Shown piece by piece: positions 28,186 through 63,897 of a DNA stretch of 64,000 nt. The stretch lies in NCBI GenBank assembly GCA_902384795.1, contig CABMDC010000004.1:68725-132724 (forward strand). The letters run 5' to 3'. Both the position numbers and the translations under genes were made by a program. The stretch comes from Candidatus Gugararchaeum adminiculabundum (GTDB lineage: Archaea > Micrarchaeota > Micrarchaeia > Burarchaeales > Gugararchaeaceae). Within the stretch, counting starts at the first letter, position 1. Each line of letters begins with the position of its first letter. The notes beneath the pieces were generated by a model. It had not been told where the DNA came from. It did no database searches and worked only from the letters and a program-made list of their open reading frames with translations.

Positions 28186-29271
28186 TTGGCGATCAGCATG
28201 GATAGTTTGATCAAAAGTGTTATTGGAGAGCAGGAGCCGGCTCAACAACAGGATTTTGGCTCGGACCAGATAAAGATAGTAACCATCGGAATCGGTGGTG
28301 CAGGTAACAACACCATGAACCGCCTGGTGAAGGCAGGAGTCAAGGGTTGTGACCTGGTTGCCGTCAACACTGACAGGCAGCACCTGGGGATGCTCGACGA
28401 AAAGATCAAGAAAATCTTGATCGGAAAGAGCATAACCAAAGGCCTCGGAGCAGGGGGTTACCCTGATATCGGAGCCAAGGCTGCTGAAGTGGACAGGCAG
28501 TTGCTCGAGAAAGAGCTCAGCGGGGCCCACCTCGTTTTCCTGTGTGCAGGAATGGGAGGAGGAACCGGTACTGGAGCAGCACCCGTAGTCGCAGAAATCG
28601 CGAAAGAGCAGGGTGCGATCACCGTAGCAATGGTTACTTACCCGTTCTCCCTGGAGAGAGCGAGGAGGCTGAAGGCAGACGAGGGTATTGCAAAGCTGAG
28701 GAAGGTAACTGACTCGGTAATCATCCTCGACAACAACAGGCTCGCAAAGCTTGTGCCAAACCTGCCCATGAACGAGGCATTCAGCGTTGCCGACGAAATA
28801 TTAGCAAAGGCAATCGTTGGATTGGTTTGGACAATCACCCAGCCCAGCTTGATCAATATTGACTTCGCGGATGTGAGGTCTATCATGGCTGGCGGAGGCG
28901 TTGGATTCATCGCAGTCGGAAGCGGAAAAGGAACCGACAAGGTGACCGGCGCGGCCGAGGGAGTCCTGAAGAACAGGCTGCTGGATGTTGACTTCGAGGG
29001 AGCAAGCGGCGCATTAATCCACATTTCCGGAGGAGCGGACCTGACACTCGGTGACGCAATCAAGGCAGGAGAAATGGTCACAGAGAGAATGGACCCGCAA
29101 TCCAATGTCAAGTGGGGAGCACGCCTTATCCCTGGTTTCGAGGGCAGACTGGAAATAGTCTCCATCGTAACAGGAGTCAAGGGAGCTAGCATTGCAGGAA
29201 AGACCTATTCCGAACCAGCGGCAGCGTCTGCGGGCTCAGGATTGCTTTCCGACATTGAAGTAATTGGCTAA
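28186..29271 (+). CDS. ftsZ: Cell division protein FtsZ (FtsZ2-type)
   Basis: [52 protein letters not shown]. Start TTG 28186 or ATG 28198. Confidence 0.97.
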
Positions 29272-29454
29272 GCCATTGAACTTGGCCAATTATTTTATTT
29301 TTTTTCTTTTTTTTCATTTTAGCGGGAAGGAAGCGAGAAAGCAGGAAAGTGAAGCAGTAGAATAGTAGTAAGCGACCAGAAGAAAGCAAAATGAGCAGAG
29401 GATTACCGGAAGCAAGGGGGTGGCCCCTGAGCTTGCGGATTGGAGGATGACAAA

Positions 29455-30615
29455 ATGGGAATCGAAGATTTCGTTAAACAGGCATTGAGCAGCAATGCGG
29501 CAAGTGCGGCGGTAAGTTCCAATGTTTCACAATCACAACCGCGGATAGGAGCGGCATCACAATTGATCACCGAAAACGCAACTCCGGCCCAGGTGGACGA
29601 GGCGGACAGCAATGAGAAAATCAACATTACTGTCATAGGGGTCGGAGGAGGCGGGTGCAACACGATCAACCGCATATCCAAGGGCGGAATCAAAACCGCG
29701 AGAACCATTGCCGTTAACACGGATGCAGTGCACTTGAGGGCAACTGCTGCGGACGCAAAAATACTAATCGGAAAGGACCAGACGCGAGGTTTGGGCGCTG
29801 GAGGATACCCTGAAGTGGCAAAGAGGTGCGCCGAAGCAAGCAGGCATGAGGTTGAGGAAGCCCTCGGAAGGACCGAACTCGTTTTCCTGTGCGCAGGAAT
29901 GGGAGGAGGAACCGGCACCGGTGCGACACCGATTATCGCCGACATTGCGAAAAAATCAGGCGCCATAGTGGTGGCGGCTGTCACCTACCCGTTCGCGCTT
30001 GAAAGAATCCGCGCAAAGAAGGCGCTGGTTGGAATTCAGGAGCTGCAAAAAGTATGCGACACGGTAATTATAATTGACAACAACAAGCTCGTGAGCTATG
30101 TTCCAAACTTGCCAATCAATGATGCGTTCAATTTGGCGGACGCGATTACTGCCCGCGCAGTAAAGGGAATTGCGGACACGATCATCCTGCCGAGCCTGAT
30201 CAACATTGATTTCGCAGACATAAAGGCGATTATGGGCAAGGGCGGAATTTCCATGATTTCAGTTGGCGAAGGAAAGGGGACCAACAGGATCGCGGACGTG
30301 GTGAGAAGCACCATCAACCAGCCGCTGCTGGACGTTGACACCTATGGGGCAAAAGGGGCGCTGCTGCACATCTGCGGAGGCGACTCGCTCACACTTGGTG
30401 AAGCGTTGGAAGTCGGCGAGGGGCTGACAGCGGAATTTGATGAAAAGGCGAATGTGATTTGGGGAGCAAGAATCGACCCGCAGATGAAGGACGAGGTATA
30501 TGTCACATCCATCATTACGGGCGTGAAATCCCCGAACATATTGGGCAATTACGAAAAGGAGAAAGAGGACAACAAGGTTCCTATGCCGTCCGAATTGAGA
30601 AGCATAGGATTCTAG
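29455..30615 (+). CDS. ftsZ: Cell division protein FtsZ, second paralog (FtsZ2-type)
   Basis: [61 protein letters not shown] before ATG 29455. Confidence 0.97.
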   Translation: MGIEDFVKQALSSNAASAAVSSNVSQSQPRIGAASQLITENATPAQVDEADSNEKINITVIGVGGGGCNTINRISKGGIKTARTIAVNTDAVHLRATAADAKILIGKDQTRGLGAGGYPEVAKRCAEASRHEVEEALGRTELVFLCAGMGGGTGTGATPIIADIAKKSGAIVVAAVTYPFALERIRAKKALVGIQELQKVCDTVIIIDNNKLVSYVPNLPINDAFNLADAITARAVKGIADTIILPSLINIDFADIKAIMGKGGISMISVGEGKGTNRIADVVRSTINQPLLDVDTYGAKGALLHICGGDSLTLGEALEVGEGLTAEFDEKANVIWGARIDPQMKDEVYVTSIITGVKSPNILGNYEKEKEDNKVPMPSELRSIGF

Positions 30616-51534: not shown

Positions 51535-52158
51535 TCAACGCTTGAGATCTTCGAGCCGGACTAATTTACCTGGAGTATTGTTCTCGATATCTCGATCTAA
51601 TTCTTCTACCAATTTCTTTTCCCTTTTTGTCAGCACATAGCCGAATCTCCTTAAATCCGCATTTATCTGCGCCTTTGAAGCGAATTTTCCATAGGGGGTT
51701 TGCCTGATCCTTTCCTTTTCAATTCTGCTCCGCTCGTGAAAAACTATTTCATTTCCGTAGTATGAAAGCAGCTTTGCGATCTTCTTTGCCCGGTATGTTC
51801 CCTTTTCATTGTTTCGCTTTATTCTGTCTGAAATGACCAACCTTGCACTCATCTTCTTGTTCACCACGTGGATTTGATTTGACTGGGCCCAGGAAATTCC
51901 CAAGGCTTCCTGCGCAGTGGAGCAGCTGTAGTAAAAGTCATTGCTCTTTAGGAACAGGGCTATTGCTCCGGACAATACCCTGAGGGGGCTTTCGATGAAC
52001 TGTCCCCTTCTTTCCTCGGGCAATGGAACGTAGTAGATTCCCTTGAAAGGGGTCGGAAAGAGCTTTAGCCCGGAGTACATGTCTGTAATCTGCTTTTTGG
52101 TGTAACCCTCTTGCAGCAGCTGCTCAAAACTAATTACCTGCTTTGGAAGCATTTTCAA
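51535..52158 (-). CDS. Putative AbiEi-like antitoxin/partner
   Basis: Overlaps the AbiEii-like gene; FKGIYYVP, YYSCSTAQEALGI..Q....HVVN pattern typical of AbiEi. Confidence 0.65.
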   Translation of the reverse strand: MKMLPKQVISFEQLLQEGYTKKQITDMYSGLKLFPTPFKGIYYVPLPEERRGQFIESPLRVLSGAIALFLKSNDFYYSCSTAQEALGISWAQSNQIHVVNKKMSARLVISDRIKRNNEKGTYRAKKIAKLLSYYGNEIVFHERSRIEKERIRQTPYGKFASKAQINADLRRFGYVLTKREKKLVEELDRDIENNTPGKLVRLEDLKR

Positions 52159-52732
52159 TCACCTTGCTGAAAAAATCCCGGTCCTCCTCGTTCAGCGTAA
52201 TGTTTCGTATCTCGCCGAAATTTTTAGGAAAACCGAATTTTGCAATCAGTTCCCTGATTTTTTCAAATCCTTGTTTCTTGCTCTTTAGGATGAAAATAAT
52301 ATCGTACAAATCCCTTGCTTCCATTCTTTCGGAATAGCTCTGCAATTTCATCTCAAAGATATCGTCCAAAGATGCGACTCTCAATTTTGCATTTCCAAAA
52401 GAGTGCTCGTCGAATTTCTTTATTTTGTAATCCGGAATGAAAACTTCCACTTTTATGCTGGTGTCCTCAAACTGGATGACGAACTGATTTGTGTACACTC
52501 CGCTGCTTGTCCTGAATCCTTTCCTGCTCAGGCATCCCTTCAATGTTTCTTTCATTTTTGCCGCATTGCCTTCAAGCGGAACAAAATCCAGGTCAATGCT
52601 AATCCTGTGCTTCAGATGGAAAAGCGCCAATGCGGTTCCGCCAACAAGGATGAACTTCTTTTGTGTGCACTCGGCGACATCTGGAAGGATTTCCAGCACC
52701 CGCTTGTACTTGGAGTAAAACCGCTCATCCAT
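52130..52732 (-). CDS. AbiEii/AbiGii-family nucleotidyltransferase toxin
   Basis: LVGGTAL, HRISIDLDF, MKL...R..ARDLYDI motifs. Confidence 0.88.
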   Translation of the reverse strand: MDERFYSKYKRVLEILPDVAECTQKKFILVGGTALALFHLKHRISIDLDFVPLEGNAAKMKETLKGCLSRKGFRTSSGVYTNQFVIQFEDTSIKVEVFIPDYKIKKFDEHSFGNAKLRVASLDDIFEMKLQSYSERMEARDLYDIIFILKSKKQGFEKIRELIAKFGFPKNFGEIRNITLNEEDRDFFSKVIENASKAGN

Positions 52733-52889: not shown

Positions 52890-53399
52890 ATGGGAAAAGT
52901 TTACCGCGTTAATGACAAGCTGGAGTTATTGGAATTAGTTGACTTTAAGGAAGCGGATGAAAAGGAGATTCCGCAGGCTGTTTCTTTTGTGATTGTTGAA
53001 CGAAAGGATGGAAAGGTGTTCCTTCAGTATAGGCCTAAGGGAAGAGTGCGCAATCCCCTCAAATTCACTTCTTCCGCTTCTGGCCACGTTGATGAAGATG
53101 AAGACTATCTGGAAGCAGCTGGACGCGAATTGCGCGAAGAATTGGGGATTACAGTGGAGCAGAATAAGCTGAAGCTGATTGGCACTGTTCCCAAATTTAC
53201 GCATCGCGGCAAGGTTTACCTTGTTCGGACTGATTCACCCCTATTCCCAGACCCTGGCGAGGTTGATGCCGCTGGCTCTGGCTGGTTTTCCCTAGCTGAA
53301 GTGAAGGAAATGGTGGAGAAGACTCCGGAGAAATTCACGCGCGGTGGATTGCAGGCATTCCAGGCCTATTTGAAACACTCCCACGTAGGAAAGGCTTAG
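52890..53399 (+). CDS. Nudix hydrolase (YfcD/IDI-1-like subfamily)
   Basis: Nudix box GHVDEDEDYLEAAGRELREELG; LQYR and PEKFT motifs. Confidence 0.85.
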   Translation: MGKVYRVNDKLELLELVDFKEADEKEIPQAVSFVIVERKDGKVFLQYRPKGRVRNPLKFTSSASGHVDEDEDYLEAAGRELREELGITVEQNKLKLIGTVPKFTHRGKVYLVRTDSPLFPDPGEVDAAGSGWFSLAEVKEMVEKTPEKFTRGGLQAFQAYLKHSHVGKA

Positions 53400-54270: not shown

Positions 54271-54397
54271 AACCCACAAATCAAAACGGATTTAACGACG
54301 ATAGATAGTCACATTTATATTCTATGGCGTTGTTAATACTGTACTGTTTCTAGTAGAAGATTATTGCCTAGCAATAGTGCCGGGTGGGGTTGGGAGT

Positions 54398-55423
54398 ATG
54401 AGAATTGATCTGGTAGAGGAAAAGTTCACTTACGACGACATACTTATAGTGCCGCAGCACACTACGATTGGCAGCAGGACCGAGATTTCCACTGACCACA
54501 TATTTGCTGGCATCAAAGTCGGCCTGCCAGTGATAAGCGCTGCCATGGACACTGTTACTACCTTTGAAATGGCCAAAGCGCTTCAGGCAAAAGGCGGACT
54601 TGCTGCCTTTCCCCGCGAATCCAAGATTGAAATTGCCCGCCAGCTTGCCAAGGACAAGGTGATTACCTCATCTTTCTACTCCATTGGGGTGAATTACAAG
54701 CCCAATGAGCTTGAGGCACTGGACATTCTATCCCAGGCAGGCGGCAAGCAGCTCATCAACATTGACATTGCCCATGGAGACTGCGCCAAAATGGAAAAGG
54801 CGCTTGACTTCTATTCAAAGAAATACCCGAGCTTCATCCTGATGGCAGGGAATGTGGCAACCCCGGATGCTGCTCTTCGCCTGTCCAAAGCAGGGGCGGA
54901 CATAGTGAAAGCCGGGATTGGGCCAGGGGCTGTTTGCTCCACGCGCATCAATACCGGAGTGGGGTATCCCCAGGCAAGCGCCATAATGGAAGTGCGCAAA
55001 AAGTACGATGGCGCGCTTGTTGCCGATGGAGGGGTGAATTACATAGGGGATGTGTGCAAGGCGCTGGCAATTGGCGCTGATGCGGTGATGATTGGAAGGC
55101 TGTTTGCGCAGACATCCGAATCCGCTGGCAAGATTGTCGAGATTGGGGGAAAGAAGTTCAAGGAATACAGGGGAATGGCCTCGCCCGCTGCCAAGGCGAA
55201 CAGGAATGAGAAGGATTCAAAGCGGTTTGTTGAAGGGGAATCGTTCATGGTCCCTATTGAAGGCTCTGTTTTGACTGTTTTGGACAATATACGGGACGGA
55301 TTGCTTTCCGCCATGAGCTACTCGGATTCGCGCACTATTAAAGAATTTAAAACCAAGGCTGATTTGGTTCGTATTTCTGGTGCGACTGCGCGCGAGAACT
55401 CGATACGGAAGGAATTGAAATAA
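54398..55423 (+). CDS. guaB: IMP dehydrogenase/GMP reductase family protein lacking CBS domains
   Basis: TYDDILIVP, SAAMDTVT, DIAHG, GNVAT, GIGPGAVCSTR (catalytic Cys), ADGG, YRGMAS. The flap lacks the RY dyad, so GuaB vs GuaC is unresolved. Confidence 0.85.
   Translation: MRIDLVEEKFTYDDILIVPQHTTIGSRTEISTDHIFAGIKVGLPVISAAMDTVTTFEMAKALQAKGGLAAFPRESKIEIARQLAKDKVITSSFYSIGVNYKPNELEALDILSQAGGKQLINIDIAHGDCAKMEKALDFYSKKYPSFILMAGNVATPDAALRLSKAGADIVKAGIGPGAVCSTRINTGVGYPQASAIMEVRKKYDGALVADGGVNYIGDVCKALAIGADAVMIGRLFAQTSESAGKIVEIGGKKFKEYRGMASPAAKANRNEKDSKRFVEGESFMVPIEGSVLTVLDNIRDGLLSAMSYSDSRTIKEFKTKADLVRISGATARENSIRKELK
55392..55422 (+). repeat. guaB 3'-end direct repeat, copy 1 (within the gene)
   Basis: GCGAGAACTCGATACGGAAGGAATTGAAATA. 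Confidence 0.9.
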
Positions 55424-55520
55424 GCTGGAACTATAATCGAGGATACTAGGGCGAGGACTGGATGCCCGAGAGAAAGAAAACAATTTAAATAGTACAGCTA
55501 ATACAGTAAATGGGCATCGT

Positions 55521-55727
55521 ATGAAGGCAGATTTGGAAGTGCTGAGGGCTAAATTTCTGAAGGCGTATTCGTCAGTTCCGGATAAGCTTAGGGATGATGT
55601 AGTCGCCGTGGTAGACGACAAAACTTATAGCTGGAATTCTGCATTCATAGAAGTTAACGGAAAAACTCCCCTGGGAGATAAGATTATTAGGAAGCTCGAA
55701 GAAATAGGTATGTTTGGGCAGAAGTGA
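55521..55727 (+). CDS. Small hypothetical protein A (68 aa) of the protease triad
   Basis: Own TATA (TTTAAATA 55484-55491); GTGA overlap with the next gene; motif similarity to protein B. Confidence 0.8.
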   Translation: MKADLEVLRAKFLKAYSSVPDKLRDDVVAVVDDKTYSWNSAFIEVNGKTPLGDKIIRKLEEIGMFGQK

Positions 55728-55963
55728 TCCGTATGGGCGAAGATTACGTAAAAGAACTTGTTATAGCACGATTGCGGACTATTCCGCCGAATATTGGCTT
55801 TTCCGTAGGTTCCCATGGGGACTTCACAAGGGATGAAATAATCAATCAGGTCAGCAAAGGAACGGACATAGGAAAGGAGTTTGCTGCGATTGAAATCAAA
55901 ATGCTTATTGATACCCCGAAGCTGGTTGGTCGGTTAAGTGGAAAAACGCCTTCTTCTCACTAG
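55724..55963 (+). CDS. Small hypothetical protein B (79 aa) of the protease triad
   Basis: Coupled to both neighbours; KELVIARLRTIP..FTRDEIINQV..GTDIG. Confidence 0.8.
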   Translation: MIRMGEDYVKELVIARLRTIPPNIGFSVGSHGDFTRDEIINQVSKGTDIGKEFAAIEIKMLIDTPKLVGRLSGKTPSSH

Positions 55964-56579
55964 GTCAAGGCACGATATCGCCAACCAATACTTGTATGCT
56001 TATTCTGAGGAGATAATAGCAGAGGCGGATAGTTTAGGGTGGAAAACGGACAGAGTTGAAAACGAGAAGAACCAGAGGAAAGAAGTGGAATCCAGATTAA
56101 CGAAAAGCGCCTATGATTTCGTATTCTTTAACGGCCATGGAACGGATGAGTCTGTTTCCGGCCATGGAGATGAAAAACTTGTTGATGCCGGTTCGGCATC
56201 AATTTTGAAGGATAAGATAGTGTTTGCCCGGAGCTGTTCCGCGTTGAATACACTTGGAAAAGAAGCTGTCAAAAAAGGATGCAAAGCGTTCATAGGGTAT
56301 AACGGGCTTTTCTTTATTTCTTATACAAATGAATACCAGTCAACGCCGCTGAAAGACCCTACTGCAAGGCCGGTGATGGAAGTTTCAAATTTGGCAGGGA
56401 AGTTGATACTGAAGGGAGATACTGTTCAAACAGCAGTTGAAGCCGCCCAGCGCAAGGCAGGAGATTTAATCCTGAAAATGCTGGCTTCAAAAGAACCGTA
56501 TGATGCTGGAACTTTCAGGGCGCTTTACCAGAATTATATGACGTTTTCTTTTACGGGAGATGGGCAGGCGAAGGCGTAA
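55938..56579 (+). CDS. Caspase/gingipain-fold (clan CD) His-Cys protease-like protein
   Basis: FVFFNGHG (His), IVFARSC (Cys), AFIGY strand and terminal GD motif, as in C25/CHAT-like peptidases; no signal peptide. Confidence 0.7.
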   Translation: MEKRLLLTRSRHDIANQYLYAYSEEIIAEADSLGWKTDRVENEKNQRKEVESRLTKSAYDFVFFNGHGTDESVSGHGDEKLVDAGSASILKDKIVFARSCSALNTLGKEAVKKGCKAFIGYNGLFFISYTNEYQSTPLKDPTARPVMEVSNLAGKLILKGDTVQTAVEAAQRKAGDLILKMLASKEPYDAGTFRALYQNYMTFSFTGDGQAKA

Positions 56580-56581
56580 AT

Positions 56582-56626
56582 TACGGAAGGAATTGAAATA
56601 AACTAGGGACGGGGATATTGGGGACG
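56582..56626 (+). repeat. guaB 3'-end direct repeat, copy 2
   Basis: TACGGAAGGAATTGAAATAA + ACTAGGGACGGGGATATTGGGGACG, 2 bp after the protease stop. Confidence 0.9.
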
Positions 56627-56706
56627 AAGAAGGGATTGACGGACACTATTCAGCGGCAACGTAGACTAGTGACGTTTTTATACTACTTGAATTCCTATTA
56701 CCGGTT

Positions 56707-57558
56707 ATGTTCAGAAGGCAGAAAGTGTTGTTGTACCTGATGTTTGCGCTAAATCGCCGCGGAAAAAAGATAACAAAGACCTATTTAGACAAACTACTTT
56801 TCGTTTTGAGGAAAGAAACAAACATTGGAGATTTTGTCAAGTTTTACAATTTTTTCCCTTACAATTACGGGCCTTTTTCTAACCAGTTTTATTTTGATTT
56901 GGCTGATTTGTACAGCCATGCTTATTTGGCGGATGAATTCGAAGTAAAACTGCCTGCAAAAGAGGTAGAAGATTTTTTGAACGCCGAAGAAAAACAGCTG
57001 GCAAACAAAATCATAGAGAAATATGGTGATTATTCTACTGACCAGATTAAGGACTACGTCTATTCGACTTATCCGGAATACGCCCAAAAGAGCTTATTGA
57101 AAGCCCAAAAAGAGCAGGAAGGGAAACCAGGTATTTTTTCGATTGGCTACGAGAAGAAAGACATTGACCTGTTTTTGGATTTGTTGGTACAGAATGGCAT
57201 TGATACGCTGGTGGATGTGCGGGCCAATGCATTCAGCATGAATTTCTCCTTTACAAAATCAAAACTTGTGAATTACCTTGAGAAGGTGGGAATTGAATAT
57301 TTGCATGTCCCGGAATTAGGGATTAGCGGCGAATTCAGAAAAGGCCTGGATAGTGATGCTGATTATGTTAAGCTGTTTGAATTTTATCAAAGCAGCATTT
57401 TGCCAAAACAAGCGAAAAAAGTTGAAGAGGTATACGAGCTTGGCAGGAAAAAGCGGATTGCACTGCTGTGTTTTGAACAGGATAAGGGGCACTGCCACAG
57501 GGGAGTGCTAAGCAAAGAGCTGGAGAGATGCTACGGCGTGCAGGTGACGCATTTATGA
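56707..57558 (+). CDS. DUF488-family protein with N-terminal wHTH (SocA/Panacea- or DarG-C-like) domain
   Basis: N-terminal LDKLLF..FFPYNYGPFS; C-terminal IFSIGYE..LVDVR..YLHVPELG..ALLCFE..CHR. Confidence 0.85.
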   Translation: MFRRQKVLLYLMFALNRRGKKITKTYLDKLLFVLRKETNIGDFVKFYNFFPYNYGPFSNQFYFDLADLYSHAYLADEFEVKLPAKEVEDFLNAEEKQLANKIIEKYGDYSTDQIKDYVYSTYPEYAQKSLLKAQKEQEGKPGIFSIGYEKKDIDLFLDLLVQNGIDTLVDVRANAFSMNFSFTKSKLVNYLEKVGIEYLHVPELGISGEFRKGLDSDADYVKLFEFYQSSILPKQAKKVEEVYELGRKKRIALLCFEQDKGHCHRGVLSKELERCYGVQVTHL

Positions 57559-58322
57559 AAGAGAGATTGCTGGTGCTTGCCAAAGCAGCGCCGGAAGCAA
57601 GCCAAAAGTACGAAGAGCTCATTTGTGTTGCGGGGATTACAGACAAAGGAGAATGGAGGCGGATTTACCCAATTCCGTGGGAACTTTTTTTGAAGACAAG
57701 CGCTTCAAGGTTTAGAAAAAAATGGTGGATTGAATACGAGCTTGCTTCGGATAAACCTTCAGATTACAGGCCTGAGAGCAGAAAAATAAAGTTTGAGACC
57801 ATAAAGCCAGTAAGAGAAGCGTCGTTTAAAGAAATAGATGCGCTGCTTTCGCAAAGAGTCCAAACACTGGACGAAATAGGGGAAAAAGGAGTGAAAATCC
57901 AGTCGTTGGGCGTTGTGCAGCCAAGAGAAGTTTTAGATTTTCTTCCTTCAGACAACCCACATTATGAAAAACTAGTAACGATGGGCAAACAACAGGATTT
58001 GTTCGGCCAATCGGCAATGAAACTTAACCCGCCTAAATTCAAGTACAGATATAGATTCAAAGATGATGCCGAGGGAAAAATACACGAAAATCTGTGTGAA
58101 GACTGGGAGGCCGTAATGCTTTACATAAACTGCGAAAGAATGCGGCTTGCAGGAAGATATCCTGACGAAAAAACGGTCCATGAAAAAGTAAGGCAGAAAA
58201 TGCTCAGGGACATATTCAAGCAGGGGAAAGTATACTTCATAGTCGGATCGCATTACAGGTTTCCGACATTCATGATAGTTGGCGTCGTTTATCCGAAGAA
58301 AGAGGATATGAAACGTGGTTAG
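57555..58322 (+). CDS. Hypothetical partner of DUF488 (dual-OB-fold-like)
   Basis: ATGA overlap with DUF488; S.KYEELICVAGI..GEWRRIYP, DYRPES, SLG, EDWE, YFIVG..FMIVGVVYP. Confidence 0.75.
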   Translation: MKERLLVLAKAAPEASQKYEELICVAGITDKGEWRRIYPIPWELFLKTSASRFRKKWWIEYELASDKPSDYRPESRKIKFETIKPVREASFKEIDALLSQRVQTLDEIGEKGVKIQSLGVVQPREVLDFLPSDNPHYEKLVTMGKQQDLFGQSAMKLNPPKFKYRYRFKDDAEGKIHENLCEDWEAVMLYINCERMRLAGRYPDEKTVHEKVRQKMLRDIFKQGKVYFIVGSHYRFPTFMIVGVVYPKKEDMKRG

Positions 58323-58378
58323 AACTGTTTGAAGCATCCTTCTGGGCAATAAACAGTTAAGGTATCCTGCGGCTGGGA

Positions 58379-58436
58379 GCGAGAACTCGATACGGAAGGA
58401 ATTGAAATAGAACTAGGGACGGGGATATTGGGGACG
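58379..58436 (+). repeat. guaB 3'-end direct repeat, copy 3
   Basis: 31 bp identical to 55392-55422, followed by GAACTAGGGACGGGGATATTGGGGACG shared with copy 2. Confidence 0.9.
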
Positions 58437-58497
58437 GAGATTGGATCTCCGGACCTTAGATTTTTTATTCGTTTCTCACCAAATACAATGCGATTGA

Positions 58498-59931
58498 ATG
58501 TATAACGTAAAAGAAATAGATGAAAACGAAGCCATTGCAATTTTGTCTAAAGATGAGAGTCACTTTTTAGATTTCAAACATAGAAAAGTAAGCGGCAATA
58601 AATTCCAGAGAATTGCGTGCTCTTTTGCAAATTCCGATGGTGGCGAGATTTACGTAGGGATCTGTGATAAAAAAGAAACACCGGTATCTAATCAGCTTGA
58701 CCTTTGGGACGGACTAGAAAACCAGGAGGAAGCAAATACATTGCTTCAAAACCTGTATAACGAAATATCTCCCTCGATAGAACCGCGAGATGCAGAATTT
58801 TACAAAATTAAGGGAAACGACCAGAAAGGTTTAGTTCTGAGAATTTTGATAGATAAGAGCCCTAAAATTCATTATACCTCTGAGAAAAAAGTGTGGGTGA
58901 GAAAAAATGCGCAGTGTATAGAAATTCCTCCACAAGGAGTAGTTGACCTACAATTGTCAAAAGGAGTGACATCTTACGAGACACAATTTGTAGAAAATTT
59001 TGAAACAGAGAACTTGGAATCTTCTACTGCCTTAAGAAAGTTTTTGGATTACTATTCTCCAAAAAGCGAACCAAGCGAATTTTTGCGCAAGCAATATCTA
59101 ATAAGAAAAAAAGATGGCAAGGAATTTGCTACTTACGCAGCAGTTCTGCTTTTTGCAGAAACCCCTTCTGCGATTCTACCTAAAAAATGTGCAGTAAAAA
59201 TAAGCAGATACAATACTTCAGAAAATGAACCGGAAAGAGAGCACTTGGGGGAGCAGACAACCGTAGAAGGCCCGTTGTATCAACAGATTAGTGATGCGAT
59301 TTCAAGTATAAAAACAACTATAGGGGATATTTCTGTTTTGACTAGAGATGGCATGGCAAAAGCCGAGTATCCGGCAGATGCGATAAAAGAGATATTGGTA
59401 AACGCAGTTATTCATAGAGATTATAATATTTCTGAGGATATTCAAGTTTTTATCTTTAATAACAGAATTGTCATTAAGAGTCCTGGCCTTCTTGCCGGAC
59501 ATGTAACTACCCGGAATATTCTAGAAGAAAGATTTTCGCGTAATAATACAATCGTTAGGATATTGAACAAATTTCAAAATCCACCAAATAAAGATATCGG
59601 AGAAGGTTTGAATACTGCATTTCAAAAAATGAAAGAGGTTAAATTAAAACCGCCGATAATTGAAGAAAGGGATAACTCAGTGCTAGTTACATTACCACAC
59701 GAGTATCTGGCAGCACCGGAGGACATGGTTCTTGAATATCTGGAGAAACATGGGGAGATAACGAATAGTATTGGTAGAACACTTACTGGCATCAAATCAG
59801 AAAACAAAATGAAAAATGTCTTTCTTAAATTGGCGAAAAGGAATTTGGTGGAGAGAGTCCCGGATAAACAGAGCATAAACTCGGCGTGGAGAAAGAAAAG
59901 GATTGAACAGCCGATTAAACCCTCAACCTAA
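58498..59931 (+). CDS. Schlafen AlbA_2 + HATPase_c_4 + wHTH protein
   Basis: ESHFLDFK, SFANSDGGEIYVG, YP..AIKEILVNAVIHRDY, SPG, SRN, IGEG, ITN motifs; AT-richer than the flanks. Confidence 0.88.
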   Translation: MYNVKEIDENEAIAILSKDESHFLDFKHRKVSGNKFQRIACSFANSDGGEIYVGICDKKETPVSNQLDLWDGLENQEEANTLLQNLYNEISPSIEPRDAEFYKIKGNDQKGLVLRILIDKSPKIHYTSEKKVWVRKNAQCIEIPPQGVVDLQLSKGVTSYETQFVENFETENLESSTALRKFLDYYSPKSEPSEFLRKQYLIRKKDGKEFATYAAVLLFAETPSAILPKKCAVKISRYNTSENEPEREHLGEQTTVEGPLYQQISDAISSIKTTIGDISVLTRDGMAKAEYPADAIKEILVNAVIHRDYNISEDIQVFIFNNRIVIKSPGLLAGHVTTRNILEERFSRNNTIVRILNKFQNPPNKDIGEGLNTAFQKMKEVKLKPPIIEERDNSVLVTLPHEYLAAPEDMVLEYLEKHGEITNSIGRTLTGIKSENKMKNVFLKLAKRNLVERVPDKQSINSAWRKKRIEQPIKPST

Positions 59932-59973: not shown

Positions 59974-60006
59974 TTTAAATAGTGTGATGTGTCAATTTTG
60001 ACACAT
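59974..60006 (+). promoter_or_regulatory. MTase promoter with palindromic operator overlapping the start codon
   Basis: TTTAAATA (59974-59981), then ATGTGTCAA-TT-TTGACACAT (59987-60006); ATG at 60005. Confidence 0.65.
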
Positions 60007-61306
60007 GGCGAAGAAGATACAGGTAGTCTTTACAGACGAACAGTGGGATGTGATAGACACCCTCCGCGGCAGGATGGGGGAGAGCGACGCGGACCTGGTC
60101 AGGAACATCGCGATAGCCTGGATGTCGGAAAAGTCCATGATAAAGCCGCGTGGGAATTCCGATGGAAAATTCTATTTTGTGGATCTTTTCAGCGGAGCCG
60201 GCGGGCTTTCGAAAGGTCTTGAGATGGCTGGACTGACCTGTGCCCTGGGGGTCGACTTTGATAAGACCGCCATCAGGACGTTCAAGCGGAACCATCCACA
60301 ATCCGAGGTTTTCGCAGGCGATATTTTCAAACTCACGGAAGAAAAACTCAAGGAACTGATCGGTGACAAAAAAATCAGGCTTGTGGCAGGCGGTCCCCCC
60401 TGTCAGGGGATGTCGACCGTGGGTAAGGGAGACCCCAACGATCCAAGAAATTTTCTTTTCAAGGAGTTCGTCAGGGTGGTCGGCGTGTTGAAACCCGACT
60501 ATGTCCTGCTTGAAAATGTAACAGGCATGGTAGGACGAAAGAACCAGAACATAGTGGACGGAATAATCAAGGAGTTCGGCAGATATGGTTATAGGCTTGA
60601 GCCGAAGGTGCTCACTTCCAGCCAGTATGGGGTGCCTGAAAGAAGAAAAAGAACCATATTTTTGGGTAACAGACTGGGATATGTGGTGAAATGGCCGGAA
60701 CAAAAATTTGACTGGAACGGACTCCCGGCAAGAACGGTCGGCGAAGTGCTTCGTGATCTCTCCACAATTGACGGGGAGACATACAATCATGATGTGGAAT
60801 CCGCAGGGATAACTAATGAGACCGAACTGGCTAGGATCAAACACGTTCCGGAAGGCCGGGGTATACGCTATGAAGAGGATGAGGAGGCTTACTTACCGAA
60901 AGAACTCAAACTAGGAGTCGATTGGAAAACCATGAACGAGAGCAGATTCAGGCAGACCAAATATCAGAGACTTGACAGGCGTGAACCTTCGCCCACCATA
61001 ATGACAGGCAAATACTCCTATTATCATCCGACCGAAAACAGATTCATCACGGCTAGGGAAGCCGCCGCGATACAGAGTTTCCCTAACGAGTTCGTGTTCG
61101 AAGGCACGATCTCACAGCAGTGGCGGCAGATAGGCAACGCGGTTCCGCCGCTCATGGCGAAAGCCTTGGGCGAGGCTATCCTGAATACTGATGAGGAGAA
61201 AACGAATTCAAAAGTGTCGGATATTCCGATAGATAATGTCAGAAAGCACGCCTTCAACTACAAAGGGAGCGGCAACCCGTTTGGAAAGAAATCCAAAAAG
61301 GATTAG
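60005..61306 (+). CDS. dcm: DNA (cytosine-5)-methyltransferase with N-terminal RHH-like domain
   Basis: DLFSGAGG, GGPPCQG, ENV, YGVPERRKR, REAAAIQSFP, QIGNAVPP; N-terminal KKIQVVFTDEQW..GESDADLVR. Confidence 0.93.
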   Translation: MAKKIQVVFTDEQWDVIDTLRGRMGESDADLVRNIAIAWMSEKSMIKPRGNSDGKFYFVDLFSGAGGLSKGLEMAGLTCALGVDFDKTAIRTFKRNHPQSEVFAGDIFKLTEEKLKELIGDKKIRLVAGGPPCQGMSTVGKGDPNDPRNFLFKEFVRVVGVLKPDYVLLENVTGMVGRKNQNIVDGIIKEFGRYGYRLEPKVLTSSQYGVPERRKRTIFLGNRLGYVVKWPEQKFDWNGLPARTVGEVLRDLSTIDGETYNHDVESAGITNETELARIKHVPEGRGIRYEEDEEAYLPKELKLGVDWKTMNESRFRQTKYQRLDRREPSPTIMTGKYSYYHPTENRFITAREAAAIQSFPNEFVFEGTISQQWRQIGNAVPPLMAKALGEAILNTDEEKTNSKVSDIPIDNVRKHAFNYKGSGNPFGKKSKKD

Positions 61307-62010
61307 GGCGCGATGGGCGGAAACTCCTGGTCGTCGCTTTCCTCAAGATTGTATTTTGACCTCTTGGGCTTAGGTTTGCTTTTCACTTTCAACACGGCAA
61401 AAAAACTGTAGTTCCACGGGGTCGGAACGAGCGTCCCGCCCTGTCGGTCGACCCGATCGTGGTATTTTGCCCTGAATCTTAATATGAAATCTGAATTGAA
61501 CTGCTCTGTCCCCAACTTTGCGACATCCCTGTCCAAATGATAAAAACCATAACCTGAACCGACCTGGATGTAATGTGCGTCCTTTTCCCCATAGTATTTC
61601 CAGAGGGATTCCGCCTTCACAATGCATGTACGGTCTTCGAACGCCTTCTGGTCAATCTCCGCATCCTTGTAGGTTATCCTTGTTTTTTCCTTGCTGTATC
61701 TGCGCGGGACAATGTTCTTGTTTCGGACGCGTTGGAGCACCTTAAGAAGGGAGTATAAACGAGTGGTGTCGTCGTTCTCCGACCAGGTCCAGCCTTCCTT
61801 TTTTGACCAGTTGAATTTTTTCTGCCCGTAGTCCGCAGACAAACCGTTCTTGACCTCAAGGTTATAGGGTTTGCCCAGGTGGCAGAAAACCGCATCGACT
61901 CCCCCAGCCATGCCTTCCTTCACTGTTCCAGGAAAAAGCAGACCTGAGCTTTCCAGGATTTCAAAAATTTTATCCTCGTATGTGTGACCCTTGTTCTTTC
62001 CTAACACCAT
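61303..62010 (-). CDS. Putative type II restriction endonuclease (PD-(D/E)XK)
   Basis: G..YE..I, VDAVF..LEVK....DYGQ; convergent with the C5 MTase and downstream of vsr. Confidence 0.7.
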   Translation of the reverse strand: MVLGKNKGHTYEDKIFEILESSGLLFPGTVKEGMAGGVDAVFCHLGKPYNLEVKNGLSADYGQKKFNWSKKEGWTWSENDDTTRLYSLLKVLQRVRNKNIVPRRYSKEKTRITYKDAEIDQKAFEDRTCIVKAESLWKYYGEKDAHYIQVGSGYGFYHLDRDVAKLGTEQFNSDFILRFRAKYHDRVDRQGGTLVPTPWNYSFFAVLKVKSKPKPKRSKYNLEESDDQEFPPIAP

Positions 62011-62413
62011 CCATATCACCAAGAAATTTTCTGATTCTGCCCAAAACCCGGATCTTCTCATTGCGTAGTTCGTGCTCCCAGATCCTGACTACCGTCCAGC
62101 CCTTCTTTTTCAACAGCGCTGTCTCCCGCTTGTCCCTTTGAGCGTTACCATTTATCTTTCTTTTCCAAAAGGCGGTATTACTCCGGGGCATTCTGAAGTG
62201 TTTTGGACATTTGTGCCAGAAACAGCCATCCATGAAAAGCGCGACACGTTCCTTTGGAAAGGCAATGTCGATCATCTGTTTCCCGTAGTGGAGACGATAA
62301 CGATGTCCACAACCCCTGAGAATTTTCCTGAGTGCGACCTCCGGAGAAGTGTTCTTTCCGCGCACCCTGGACATTATGTAGCTCCGTTTTCTTTTGGAGA
62401 ATATGTCCGCCAT
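61970..62413 (-). CDS. vsr: Very short patch repair endonuclease
   Basis: MADIFSKRKRSYIMSRVRGKNTSPE, DIAF, FMDGCFWH, GWTVVRIWEH. Confidence 0.93.
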   Translation of the reverse strand: MADIFSKRKRSYIMSRVRGKNTSPEVALRKILRGCGHRYRLHYGKQMIDIAFPKERVALFMDGCFWHKCPKHFRMPRSNTAFWKRKINGNAQRDKRETALLKKKGWTVVRIWEHELRNEKIRVLGRIRKFLGDMDGVRKEQGSHIRG

Positions 62414-62538
62414 GCGTTTCTTATCCCATAGATTGTTTAAAAGAGACGCGGCTGTTTCCGTCAACAGCATTTATGCACTTAAACGATCGGATTTAAGACT
62501 TAAGAAGGCTAACACTCAAATCGAAAACACGTGATCCC

Positions 62539-63897
62539 ATGGTTTCCCTAACCTTCTACGGCGGCGCGAACGAAATAGGCGGAAACAAGATACTCCTAGA
62601 GGACAAAGAAGCAAGAATCTATTTGGACTTCGGCCAGAGCTTTGACTTCGGCGAGGACTATTTCCTGGACTATCTCCAGCCGAGGTCAGCTCATGGATTA
62701 GAGGTATATTTTGAATTTAATTTGATTCCAAAAATTCCAAGGCTTTACAGCAAAACCATGCTTGAGCGAACAGGCCTTAAGTACGAAAAACCTGACATTG
62801 ACGCGGTTTTCATCTCCCACTCCCATTCAGACCACGTGAACCATATCTCATTCCTAGACGAGTCAATCCCGGTTTACATGGGGCACGGAACGCACCAGAT
62901 TCTTGAAACCTATCACAAGCTTTACCCCCAGTTCTGCGACATTGGGGAACACATGCAACTTAATTTCTTCAAGTTAGGGGACAAAATCAAGGTAAAGCAC
63001 CTGATAATTGAACCGATTCACGTGGAGCATTCCATACCAGGGGCGTACGGATTCATCATTCACACAAGCAAAGGTCCGATGATATATACAGGGGATTTCA
63101 GACTGCATGGCCCGAAAAGCGCCATGACGCAGGAGTTCATCAAAAAGGCGGCAGAAAGCAAGCCCTATGCCATGCTCATAGAAGGAACCAGGATGGGAAG
63201 CGACCAGGAGCATAATTACACTGAAGCCGAAGTCGAGGGCGAAGTCAACGGCATAATCAAGGAGTCAAAAGGCATTGTTTTTGGCTACTTTTCCATGTCA
63301 AATATCGACCGTTTCATGTCTTTTTACCAGGCAACCTTGAAAAACGGGAGAAAACTGGTCATAGACACCAAGTTTGCGTACATCCTTGACTGCATGAAGG
63401 ATAAGATTCCGGCACTGCCTGACGTGATGACAGACAAGGATATACTGGTGTATTTCAAGCTTGCCAAAAGCGGAAAGTATGATGAAAAAGACTACTTTGT
63501 CTATGAGCGCAAGTTCATGCCAAAGATGATAACCTACGATGAAATAACCAAAAATCAGAAGAAATTCGCGATGCACATGGCTTTCAACAAGCTGATGGAA
63601 CTCGTTTATCTTCAACCAAAGGGCGCTGATTACATTTACTCTTCGTCTGAGCACTTCCTTGAAGGGGAGGAAAACGAGGCGGAAAGAACTGTGCTTGAGA
63701 ACTGGATGAAGCACTTTGGAGTCGCTTTCCATAAGGTGCACTGCTCAGGCCATGCAAGCAAACAGGATCTCATAGAGACAATAGAAAAAATCAAACCAAC
63801 GCTCTTGATACCGATTCATACGCAAAATCCGCATGATTTTGAGAAACTTCATCCGAACGTAGTTCTGCCTGAGAATGGAAAGACGATTGAAATCTAA
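62539..63897 (+). CDS. Metallo-beta-lactamase/beta-CASP exonuclease (RNase J-like)
   Basis: GGANEIGGN, SHSHSDH, VEHSIPG, YTGDFRLHG, IEGT, HCSGH, IPIHT. Confidence 0.9.
   Translation: MVSLTFYGGANEIGGNKILLEDKEARIYLDFGQSFDFGEDYFLDYLQPRSAHGLEVYFEFNLIPKIPRLYSKTMLERTGLKYEKPDIDAVFISHSHSDHVNHISFLDESIPVYMGHGTHQILETYHKLYPQFCDIGEHMQLNFFKLGDKIKVKHLIIEPIHVEHSIPGAYGFIIHTSKGPMIYTGDFRLHGPKSAMTQEFIKKAAESKPYAMLIEGTRMGSDQEHNYTEAEVEGEVNGIIKESKGIVFGYFSMSNIDRFMSFYQATLKNGRKLVIDTKFAYILDCMKDKIPALPDVMTDKDILVYFKLAKSGKYDEKDYFVYERKFMPKMITYDEITKNQKKFAMHMAFNKLMELVYLQPKGADYIYSSSEHFLEGEENEAERTVLENWMKHFGVAFHKVHCSGHASKQDLIETIEKIKPTLLIPIHTQNPHDFEKLHPNVVLPENGKTIEI

Follow-up and report, generated by a model that had tools for sequence, protein, structure and literature searches.

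How could small defence-type cassettes come to be stacked, one behind the other, at the end of an enzyme gene when no integrase is found among them? The question is raised by a stretch of 64,000 nucleotides (nt) from the archaeon Candidatus Gugararchaeum adminiculabundum (contig C4, positions 68725-132724), the whole of which is called the window hereafter. It belongs to a genome of 1.47 Mb in 26 contigs, 93% complete, whose gene content is archaeal (Cdc6/Orc1, eIF-1A, eIF-2 beta, a XerA-like recombinase and genes of the mevalonate pathway). In the window, a gene of the IMPDH/GMP-reductase family, here termed the anchor, is followed by three cassettes, and copies of its 3′ end, stop codon included, stand behind the first and the second of them. 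These copies are a real recombination scar of a known kind, and a double stack at one gene end is new for an archaeon. We consider it probable that foreign DNA was captured serially, independently of a recombinase and anchored in the gene tail, be it by C-terminal displacement or by insertion with long target duplication.

The features of the array are the following; positions without a contig name are those of the window, and lengths of proteins and open reading frames (ORFs) are in amino acids (aa).

54377..55423, plus strand: anchor gene, encoding an IMPDH/GMP-reductase-family protein without CBS domains; GTG start at 54377, likely ATG start at 54398
55381..55423, plus strand: live gene tail (copy A), stop TAA at 55421-55423
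55424..56581, plus strand: cassette 1, with a TATA-like box near 55485 and ORFs at 55521-55727 (68 aa), 55724-55963 (79 aa) and 55938-56579 (213 aa)
56582..56601, plus strand: orphan tail B, the last 20 nt of the anchor including stop TAA
56602..56645, plus strand: post-stop segment that B shares with C, exact over 56602-56626
56646..58367, plus strand: cassette 2, with a TATA-like box near 56674, PDC-M19A at 56707-57558 (Panacea/SocA and DUF488) and PDC-M19B, likely at 57555-58322
58368..58410, plus strand: orphan tail C, the last 42 nt of the anchor at 39/42 identity, stop TAG
58411..58454, plus strand: post-stop segment that C shares with B, exact over 58412-58436
58455..59931, plus strand: cassette 3, with a 477-aa Schlafen AlbA_2 and HATPase_c_4 protein at 58498-59931; no tail copy on its right

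Gene-end copies and cargo

An earlier, sequence-only reading of this DNA had reported that the 3′ end of the gene recurs 2 nt after cassette 1 and again, with 31 identical nt, after cassette 2, and both repeats stand. Tail B is identical to 55404-55423 at 20/20 nt and begins just 2 nt past the stop of the last ORF of cassette 1 (56579). Tail C is exact over its final 31 nt, through the third base of the stop, and ends ...AAGSENSIRKELK with TAG. The 19-mer core of the copies, TACGGAAGGAATTGAAATA, occurs three times in the window at up to three mismatches, as compared with 0.01 occurrences expected by chance, and the repeats are confined to this locus. The similarity of the two orphans extends beyond the gene: a string of 25 nt, ACTAGGGACGGGGATATTGGGGACG, lies 3′ of B (56602-56626) and of C (58412-58436) without a single difference, in a shared segment that opens ACTAGGGACGGGG... 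As the same reading had proposed, this string stands behind both copies, and it has no further match at up to three mismatches in the window (0.00 expected), in the whole genome or in the 28 other genomes of the order. Altogether the alignment of B with C spans about 64 nt at 89% identity (86% for the 44 nt past the stop); its post-stop part scores 56, a value reached by 0/500 shuffles. The degenerate ACTAGGGCGAGGA at 55445, taken earlier for a relic of the same string behind the live gene, did not hold up: the letters are present, but the segment after the live stop resembles those after B and C no better than chance (65/500 and 44/500 shuffles, respectively, scored equally well). A fourth tail copy was not found after cassette 3. 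A related motif before 53440 was rejected, since it was reached by 5/500 shuffles, uncorrected over 15 comparisons.

The sizes given earlier for the first two cassettes, 1.2 and 1.8 kb, are right, and each of the three carries one TATA-like box, read by eye, about 25-40 nt before its first ORF. Cassette 2 is a complete candidate defence system of the PADLOC collection, PDC-M19, with both components adjacent and on the same strand; this identification is new. Both proteins match near full length (PDC-M19A 7.1e-75 over residues 1-279, PDC-M19B 1.2e-42 over residues 11-260), Pfam recognizes DUF488 (7.9e-26) and SocA_Panacea (1.6e-5) in PDC-M19A, and the likely start of PDC-M19B overlaps the stop of PDC-M19A as ATGA. 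PDC systems are predicted defence candidates (bioRxiv 10.1101/2024.01.29.577857); the available part of that text does not name M19. The protein of cassette 3 matches AlbA_2 (7.6e-18) and HATPase_c_4 (1.8e-13) in Pfam and, in part, the pAgo-associated models of PADLOC. Accordingly, the defence-like cargo announced by the sequence-only reading is borne out by PADLOC for cassettes 2 and 3 and stays uncertain for cassette 1, whose ORFs have no match in Pfam, NCBIfam or PADLOC. In its ESM Atlas structure, the 213-aa protein of cassette 1 resembles CHAT and peptidase C25 folds (template modelling (TM) scores 0.64-0.78), and its nearest clusters are without names, many of them phage or viral. Cassette 1 thus appears to carry a CHAT-like protease fold, with an uncertain role in defence. 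The composition of all three cassettes is foreign, with a low G+C content of 0.43-0.44 in cassette 1, 0.39-0.44 in cassette 2 and, lowest of all, 0.36-0.385 in cassette 3; the contig averages 0.49, and the anchor has 0.53.

The same scar at other genes and in other genomes

A survey of the genome, in which the last 30 residues of 1410 crude ORFs were compared with the genome and the genome with itself by blastn, returned further orphan tails, at four or five other gene ends, just downstream of their anchors and on the same strand, with one or two orphan genes inserted between.

C10:27911-27951 to C10:28540-28580 (locus C10:27299-28581): PurN-like formyltransferase scar, 40/41 nt, two small orphan genes between
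C17:27830-29619: metallophosphoesterase scar, about 100 nt at 81%, one 164-aa gene between
C4:34057-34119 to C4:32463-32525: presenilin-like protease scar, 63 nt at 89%
C3:34119-35764: weak Cdc6 scar, 29/35 nt, tblastn E 0.033, not found by blastn

Their anchors are conserved-type genes, and the inserts mostly belong to no known family. Another copy was not counted as a scar: 274 nt from the 3′ portion of a gene with a cupredoxin domain recur at 82% identity 232 nt downstream (C13:23402-24180), with the stop kept and a coding-like divergence (27 synonymous and 15 non-synonymous codons). This copy is probably a paralogue that escaped annotation, or else a recent pseudogene, and not the trace of an insertion.

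The distribution of PDC-M19 leads to scars outside this genome (G000; other G-codes denote comparison genomes). At E ≤ 1e-10, a sample of 401 genomes of the phylum has PDC-M19A in 37, among which are G000 and the unpublished G216; its distribution is patchy, and its best match, 74% identical, comes from another family. We examined the locus of G000 and those of six genomes with full-length matches, setting aside five listed loci that are partial or cut by a contig end. PDC-M19B adjoins PDC-M19A in 6/6 of the other genomes at 55-78% identity, whole in five and truncated in G277, and by eye no conserved element is seen upstream of PDC-M19A in the seven genomes. In G226 (L201:378-2227), PDC-M19A/B is exactly enclosed by the duplicated tail of a gene for an FtsX/MacB permease; the two copies, identical at 66/67 nt, comprise the last 64 nt and the stop of this convergent gene. 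The stop of the last cassette gene abuts that of the permease there, with no spacer.

In G097 (L200:5022-8330), three tail copies of a gene for a 135-aa MarR-like protein bracket a gene for a 315-aa protein and PDC-M19A/B. This is a second stacked array, at a different anchor. The 315-aa protein is of an acylphosphatase/coiled-coil type, and the three copies end in TAA, TGA and TGA, preceded by the leucine codons CTG, CTA and CTT. The anchor of G097 is kept in 72/99 genomes of its family and lies next to grpE in 28/29 loci, and the genes found 3′ of it in G097 recur in none of the 29 loci of relatives, which are distant (at most 48% identity); the comparison shows the site to be variable and reveals no empty-site allele. 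PDC-M19 is thus found between gene-tail copies at three anchors in three genomes, one of them with a second stack, which is also new. Its position behind three host genes suggests that this route is common for defence cassettes in the group.

How the cassettes may have entered

The clearest indications as to the mechanism come from the orphan tails taken together. In all of them (10/10 examined) an in-frame stop is preserved where the live gene has its own, yet the stop codon itself differs from the live one in six (tail C of the IMPDH-family anchor, PurN, metallophosphoesterase, Cdc6 and both orphans of G097), and in the PurN and presenilin-like orphans it is kept although the preceding 4-15 nt have diverged. 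The two presenilin-like copies differ mostly at third codon positions (4, 1 and 11 differences at positions 1, 2 and 3), with ten synonymous and two non-synonymous codons. At seven of eight anchors the similarity between live and orphan tails ends at the stop or a few bases from it; the exception is the pair B and C, with 26-44 nt more in common past the stop. In a dead duplicate that decays neutrally, the stop should disappear and changes should fall on all codon positions, and a process acting on DNA cannot 'see' a stop codon unless it depends on homology that ends with the conserved gene. This is indeed where homology between diverged genomes would be expected to end. From the kept stops, the codon bias and the end of the similarity we therefore infer that both copies were working gene ends of two lineages, joined by recombination anchored in the gene.

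Accordingly worded as a sequence of events, with donors and recombination pathway to match, the process might have run as follows. A piece of DNA from a related lineage with the same gene, made up of the gene end and a different downstream cassette, would recombine with the resident gene within the shared tail, either by a Campbell-type single crossover of a circularised fragment or by homologous pairing on one side and an illegitimate join on the other (homology-facilitated illegitimate recombination). The incoming tail would become the new live gene end, while the resident tail and its downstream DNA would be pushed on as an orphan. The first state would have been the gene with tail C and cassette 3; cassette 2, that is PDC-M19, would then have entered with tail B and the same post-stop segment, and lastly cassette 1, together with what is now tail A and a post-stop segment unrelated to the earlier one, each cassette bringing its own promoter. 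Taken as such, at least two successive captures seem to have taken place behind a conserved-type enzyme gene with no dedicated recombinase, an account that we consider probable. The proposal that insertions succeeded one another at the gene end is in line with the displaced tail copies at this locus and with the same scars elsewhere in the genome and in two other genomes; of the two mechanisms offered with it, short-homology recombination is favoured and the trans-acting recombinase is not. The direct repeats could later permit the loss of a cassette by recombination, so that the 'accordion' of gain and loss suggested earlier is possible; none was observed.

The anatomy is that of the C-terminal displacement arrays at rhs, contact-dependent inhibition (CDI) and type VI secretion system (T6SS) effector loci, for which Jackson et al. 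2009 is said to be a further source besides the one cited below: a live anchor is followed by ordered orphan 3′ ends, each with different downstream genes, here and likewise in G097. Homology-facilitated illegitimate recombination has been proposed for the orphan arrays of T6SS and Rhs loci by Kirchberger et al. 2017 (PMC5361080). As far as the available part of that paper describes them, those arrays also have a conserved upstream anchor, successive new modules that come to supply the gene end and displace older 3′ ends, with their genes, in the downstream direction, an ordered arrangement without integrase and conflict-related cargo. In contrast, the anchor here is the gene of a metabolic enzyme and not of a polymorphic toxin, only 20-42 nt are displaced instead of a toxin domain, the cargo consists of whole self-promoted cassettes of defence type and not of cognate immunity genes, and the host is a DPANN-type archaeon, with the arrangement known from one genome.

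Several observations weigh against capture from a donor. Nothing was seen of an empty site, another allele, a donor or an excised circle, and relatives of the anchor reach at most 47% identity in all collections searched. Taken by itself, the IMPDH-family locus cannot distinguish a tail brought in from a donor from a target that was simply duplicated: B matches A base for base; C departs from A by three non-synonymous changes clustered at the far edge of C, by the stop codon and by a 1-nt indel, with no synonymous signal. The 20 nt of homology at cassette 1 are short for recombination of the RadA type, and the array is known from an assembly alone, one in 26 contigs. Of the seven loci of PDC-M19 that were examined, four lack any repeat of 16 nt or more at their flanks. 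Moreover, since PDC-M19 occurs at three anchors, a first, non-homologous placement beside each of them is still needed and is left unexplained. Finally, in a stricter count (proteins of at least 120 aa, 30-aa tail queries, E ≤ 1e-3), which the IMPDH-family and Cdc6 tails are too short to pass, five orphan tails lie downstream on the same strand, one upstream and none on the opposite strand; controls gave four orphan heads and three mid-gene pieces, not much rarer than the six tails, and the excess of tails is therefore modest.

The alternative that survives best, unlikely as we take it to be, is an insertion within the genome with a long and variable target duplication, in which staggered breaks 20 and about 68-86 nt apart around the stop would be filled in once foreign DNA had been ligated in, both copies being resident and no donor tail taking part. 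This would fit the identity of B with A (20/20), the 31-nt exact core of C and the 66/67 identical positions in G226, and it would dispense with donor homology at the same anchor, which is not obviously at hand for PDC-M19 with its three anchors. Left unexplained, by contrast, are the end of the similarity at the stop codon in most cases, the 10/10 in-frame stops, six with a changed codon, and the 10:2 synonymous bias of the presenilin-like pair; neutral decay should destroy stops and hit all codon positions. Nor do we know of an enzyme for such long target duplication. A class of this kind is documented for restriction-modification (R-M) genes without mobility genes (PMC2853133), where, in the part of the paper available, it is defined on pairs of R and M genes by an insert below 20 kb, no mobility genes, a duplication above 30 bp and a sister genome in which the site is empty, and where no archaeal case survived the screen. 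The array shares with this class small defence units between direct target repeats tens of bases long and the lack of a mobility gene; it differs in that the cargo is not R-M and that one repeat has only 20 nt. Set against a length of more than 30 bp, the repeat of cassette 2 comprises about 64 nt common to B and C (C reaching 42 nt into the gene), and that of cassette 1 the 20 nt.

Gene 3′ ends are targets of the cryptic prophage e14, which sits in icd, and of archaeal integrative elements. The sequence-only reading had, in this vein, considered a recombinase acting in trans and an integron-like array; the corresponding scenario, site-specific integration of integrase-less or decayed elements, or of cassettes as in clusters of attC sites lacking integron-integrases (CALINs), with the gene end serving as attachment (att) site, seems to us quite improbable. 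The array does have att-like properties: a core of 19-20 nt is common to A, B and C, and each insertion restores the end of the gene, whose live ORF is intact. The claim that neither the cassettes nor the window encode a recombinase or transposase is sustained by a scan of 43 of the 47 window ORFs of at least 80 aa (all but three giant ORFs and one of 105 aa), in which no integrase or transposase family was matched, PF00589 included; the cassette ORFs match no integrase family in Pfam, NCBIfam or PADLOC. The search for tyrosine recombinases that this reading recommended yields a single one in the genome, on another contig, C7: it is XerA-like, with its best score, 110 bits, against the archaeal XerA model (cut-off 220) and 52.9 bits against the integron integrase TIGR02249 (cut-off 265), far below the latter cut-off. 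No serine recombinase was found genome-wide; in a genome 93% complete, a recombinase could be missing. C7 also holds all TnpB-like genes, two above the cut-off and one weak match.

Nor do the boundaries themselves point to site-specific recombination. General folding, with no dedicated attC model, gave no hairpin shared by the three of them (DNA fold z-scores -1.0, -1.2 and -2.2), Rfam families had 0 matches at the locus at E ≤ 1, and the two tRNA genes of the window are both far from it. The copies are unequal, with 20 against 42 nt upstream of the stop, and by eye show no dyad symmetry. In IMG/VR, the 19-mer core has two matches, which are one identical stretch on two contigs, its flanks showing no similarity, and a 22-mer of the post-stop string has none, so that no IMG/VR contig carries the motifs in similar flanks. 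One sequence-specific enzyme would not explain the scars, because the gene ends that bear them are unrelated in sequence: those of PurN-like, metallophosphoesterase and presenilin-like genes in this genome and of FtsX and MarR-like genes in others. The e14 type has in common with the array that the gene end is regenerated and the displaced original end is left as an orphan direct repeat; unlike the array, such elements encode or encoded an integrase and use one fixed att core. The comparison drawn earlier with islands at guaA 3′ ends may serve as an analogy only.

As for integrons, their cassettes carry at the 3′ end an attC site, an imperfect inverted repeat that folds as a single-strand hairpin, and are mostly promoterless, depending on a common Pc promoter. 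Integrons and CALINs, including archaeal ones, and thus attC clusters without integrase in Archaea, have been described by Ghaly et al. 2022 (PMC9668308). To judge from the available part of that paper, the array resembles them in its small cassettes, unrelated to one another and often of defence type, which are stacked in order from the newest beside the entry point, and differs from them in having no intI, no attI and no structured attC at the cassette ends, in the promoter-like boxes of its cassettes and in a repeat that is a piece of the neighbouring host gene. The array is not an integron, given the absence of attC-like hairpins and the XerA-like nature and remote position of the lone tyrosine recombinase.

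Lastly, an assembly artefact in which co-occurring strains with different post-anchor genes were chained at a shared gene end can hardly account for the array. The assembly is indeed of metagenome type, in 26 contigs, and the repeats are short. However, real molecules must contain the junctions of cassette ends with partial tails (56579/56582 and 58322/58368), and an overlap of exact k-mers would not give copies that differ in length, at three bases, in the stop codon and by the 1-nt indel; the longest exact repeat has 31 nt. Other contigs, and genomes assembled independently, also show diverged scars of this kind.

Serial capture at the gene tail, if it is the right explanation, reveals no new type of machinery. 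In DPANN archaea the genomes are tiny and recognisable mobile elements scarce, yet the defence content varies, and the locus would provide a dated, readable record of how defence genes enter such a genome: stepwise, behind a host gene and without integrase. An orphan gene tail with preserved stop would also be a simple signature of recent gene gains where standard island finders fail. A literature search joining Micrarchaeota, integrase and direct repeats found nothing, and among the matches listed for homology-facilitated illegitimate recombination in archaea, judged by titles and abstract openings, there were no archaeal cassette arrays. It is tempting to speculate further, doubtful as we consider the idea to be, that cassettes bracketed by tails of conserved genes form a recombinase-free mobility system in small-genome archaea and bacteria of the Candidate Phyla Radiation (CPR). 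A cassette would then loop out as a circle with one tail copy, which would suffice for homologous recombination to insert it again behind that gene in any relative. The ends of conserved genes would in this way offer common docking sites, and PDC-M19 and other defence genes would circulate like integron cassettes by means of host recombination only.

Anchor, flanks and dispersed repeats

The name guaB, given to the anchor by the sequence-only reading, is too specific. The IMPDH barrel is present in full length (348-aa protein; Pfam IMPDH 2.3e-77, 260.8 bits, profile positions 2-343 of 345), but the Pfam scan detects no CBS pair, and the protein remains below every NCBIfam equivalog cut-off (216 against 481.5 for TIGR01302, IMP dehydrogenase; 215 against 344 for NF003966, GMP reductase). 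Among 5.8 billion proteins, its nearest non-self relative is 43% identical. At E ≤ 1e-20 the anchor is found in one of 40 relatives, at 47% identity, and in none of the 28 other genomes of the order; the best identity is 46% in JGI metagenome contigs and 45% in GTDB genome contigs, and the nearest tblastn loci belong mostly to CPR bacteria and other small-genome metagenome-assembled genomes (36-46%). The anchor may be an acquired salvage gene.

Two further features lie to the right of cassette 3.

60005..62470, mixed strands: type II restriction-modification-like unit, with a Dcm methylase (60005-61306, plus), a 252-aa protein of no assigned family (61303-62061, minus) and Vsr (61970-62470, minus)
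62539..63897, plus strand: RNase J-like beta-CASP gene (Pfam, NCBIfam), the right flank of the island

The Dcm/Vsr unit, with a G+C content of 0.48-0.50, is part of the same variable island as the array; flanking repeats were not found around it. Just upstream of the anchor, the segment 51535-53399 contains an AbiEii-type toxin gene (52130-52732, minus), with an overlapping partner of 207 aa, and a NUDIX gene (52890-53399); G+C falls to 0.42-0.46 in it. The variable, defence-rich stretch therefore begins well before the array, which is a part of it; it extends over roughly 51.5-62.5 kb of the window. Farther away, the window contains an adjacent pair of FtsZ-family genes (361 and 391 aa) at 28186-30615.

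Several intergenic direct repeats that bracket genes elsewhere in the genome were rejected as target duplications, as they belong to a dispersed repeat family. Its unit is about 110 nt long, with an internal hairpin-like half, and at least 15 whole or half copies exist at 82-97% identity, for example at C1:163688-163798 and also on C2, C3, C4, C7, C8, C12, C13, C17, C18 and C22. The copies often stand just past gene ends, and at times two of them bracket 1.5-4 kb. The repeat could be an element resembling a miniature inverted-repeat transposable element (MITE), or one resembling a terminator or small RNA (sRNA).

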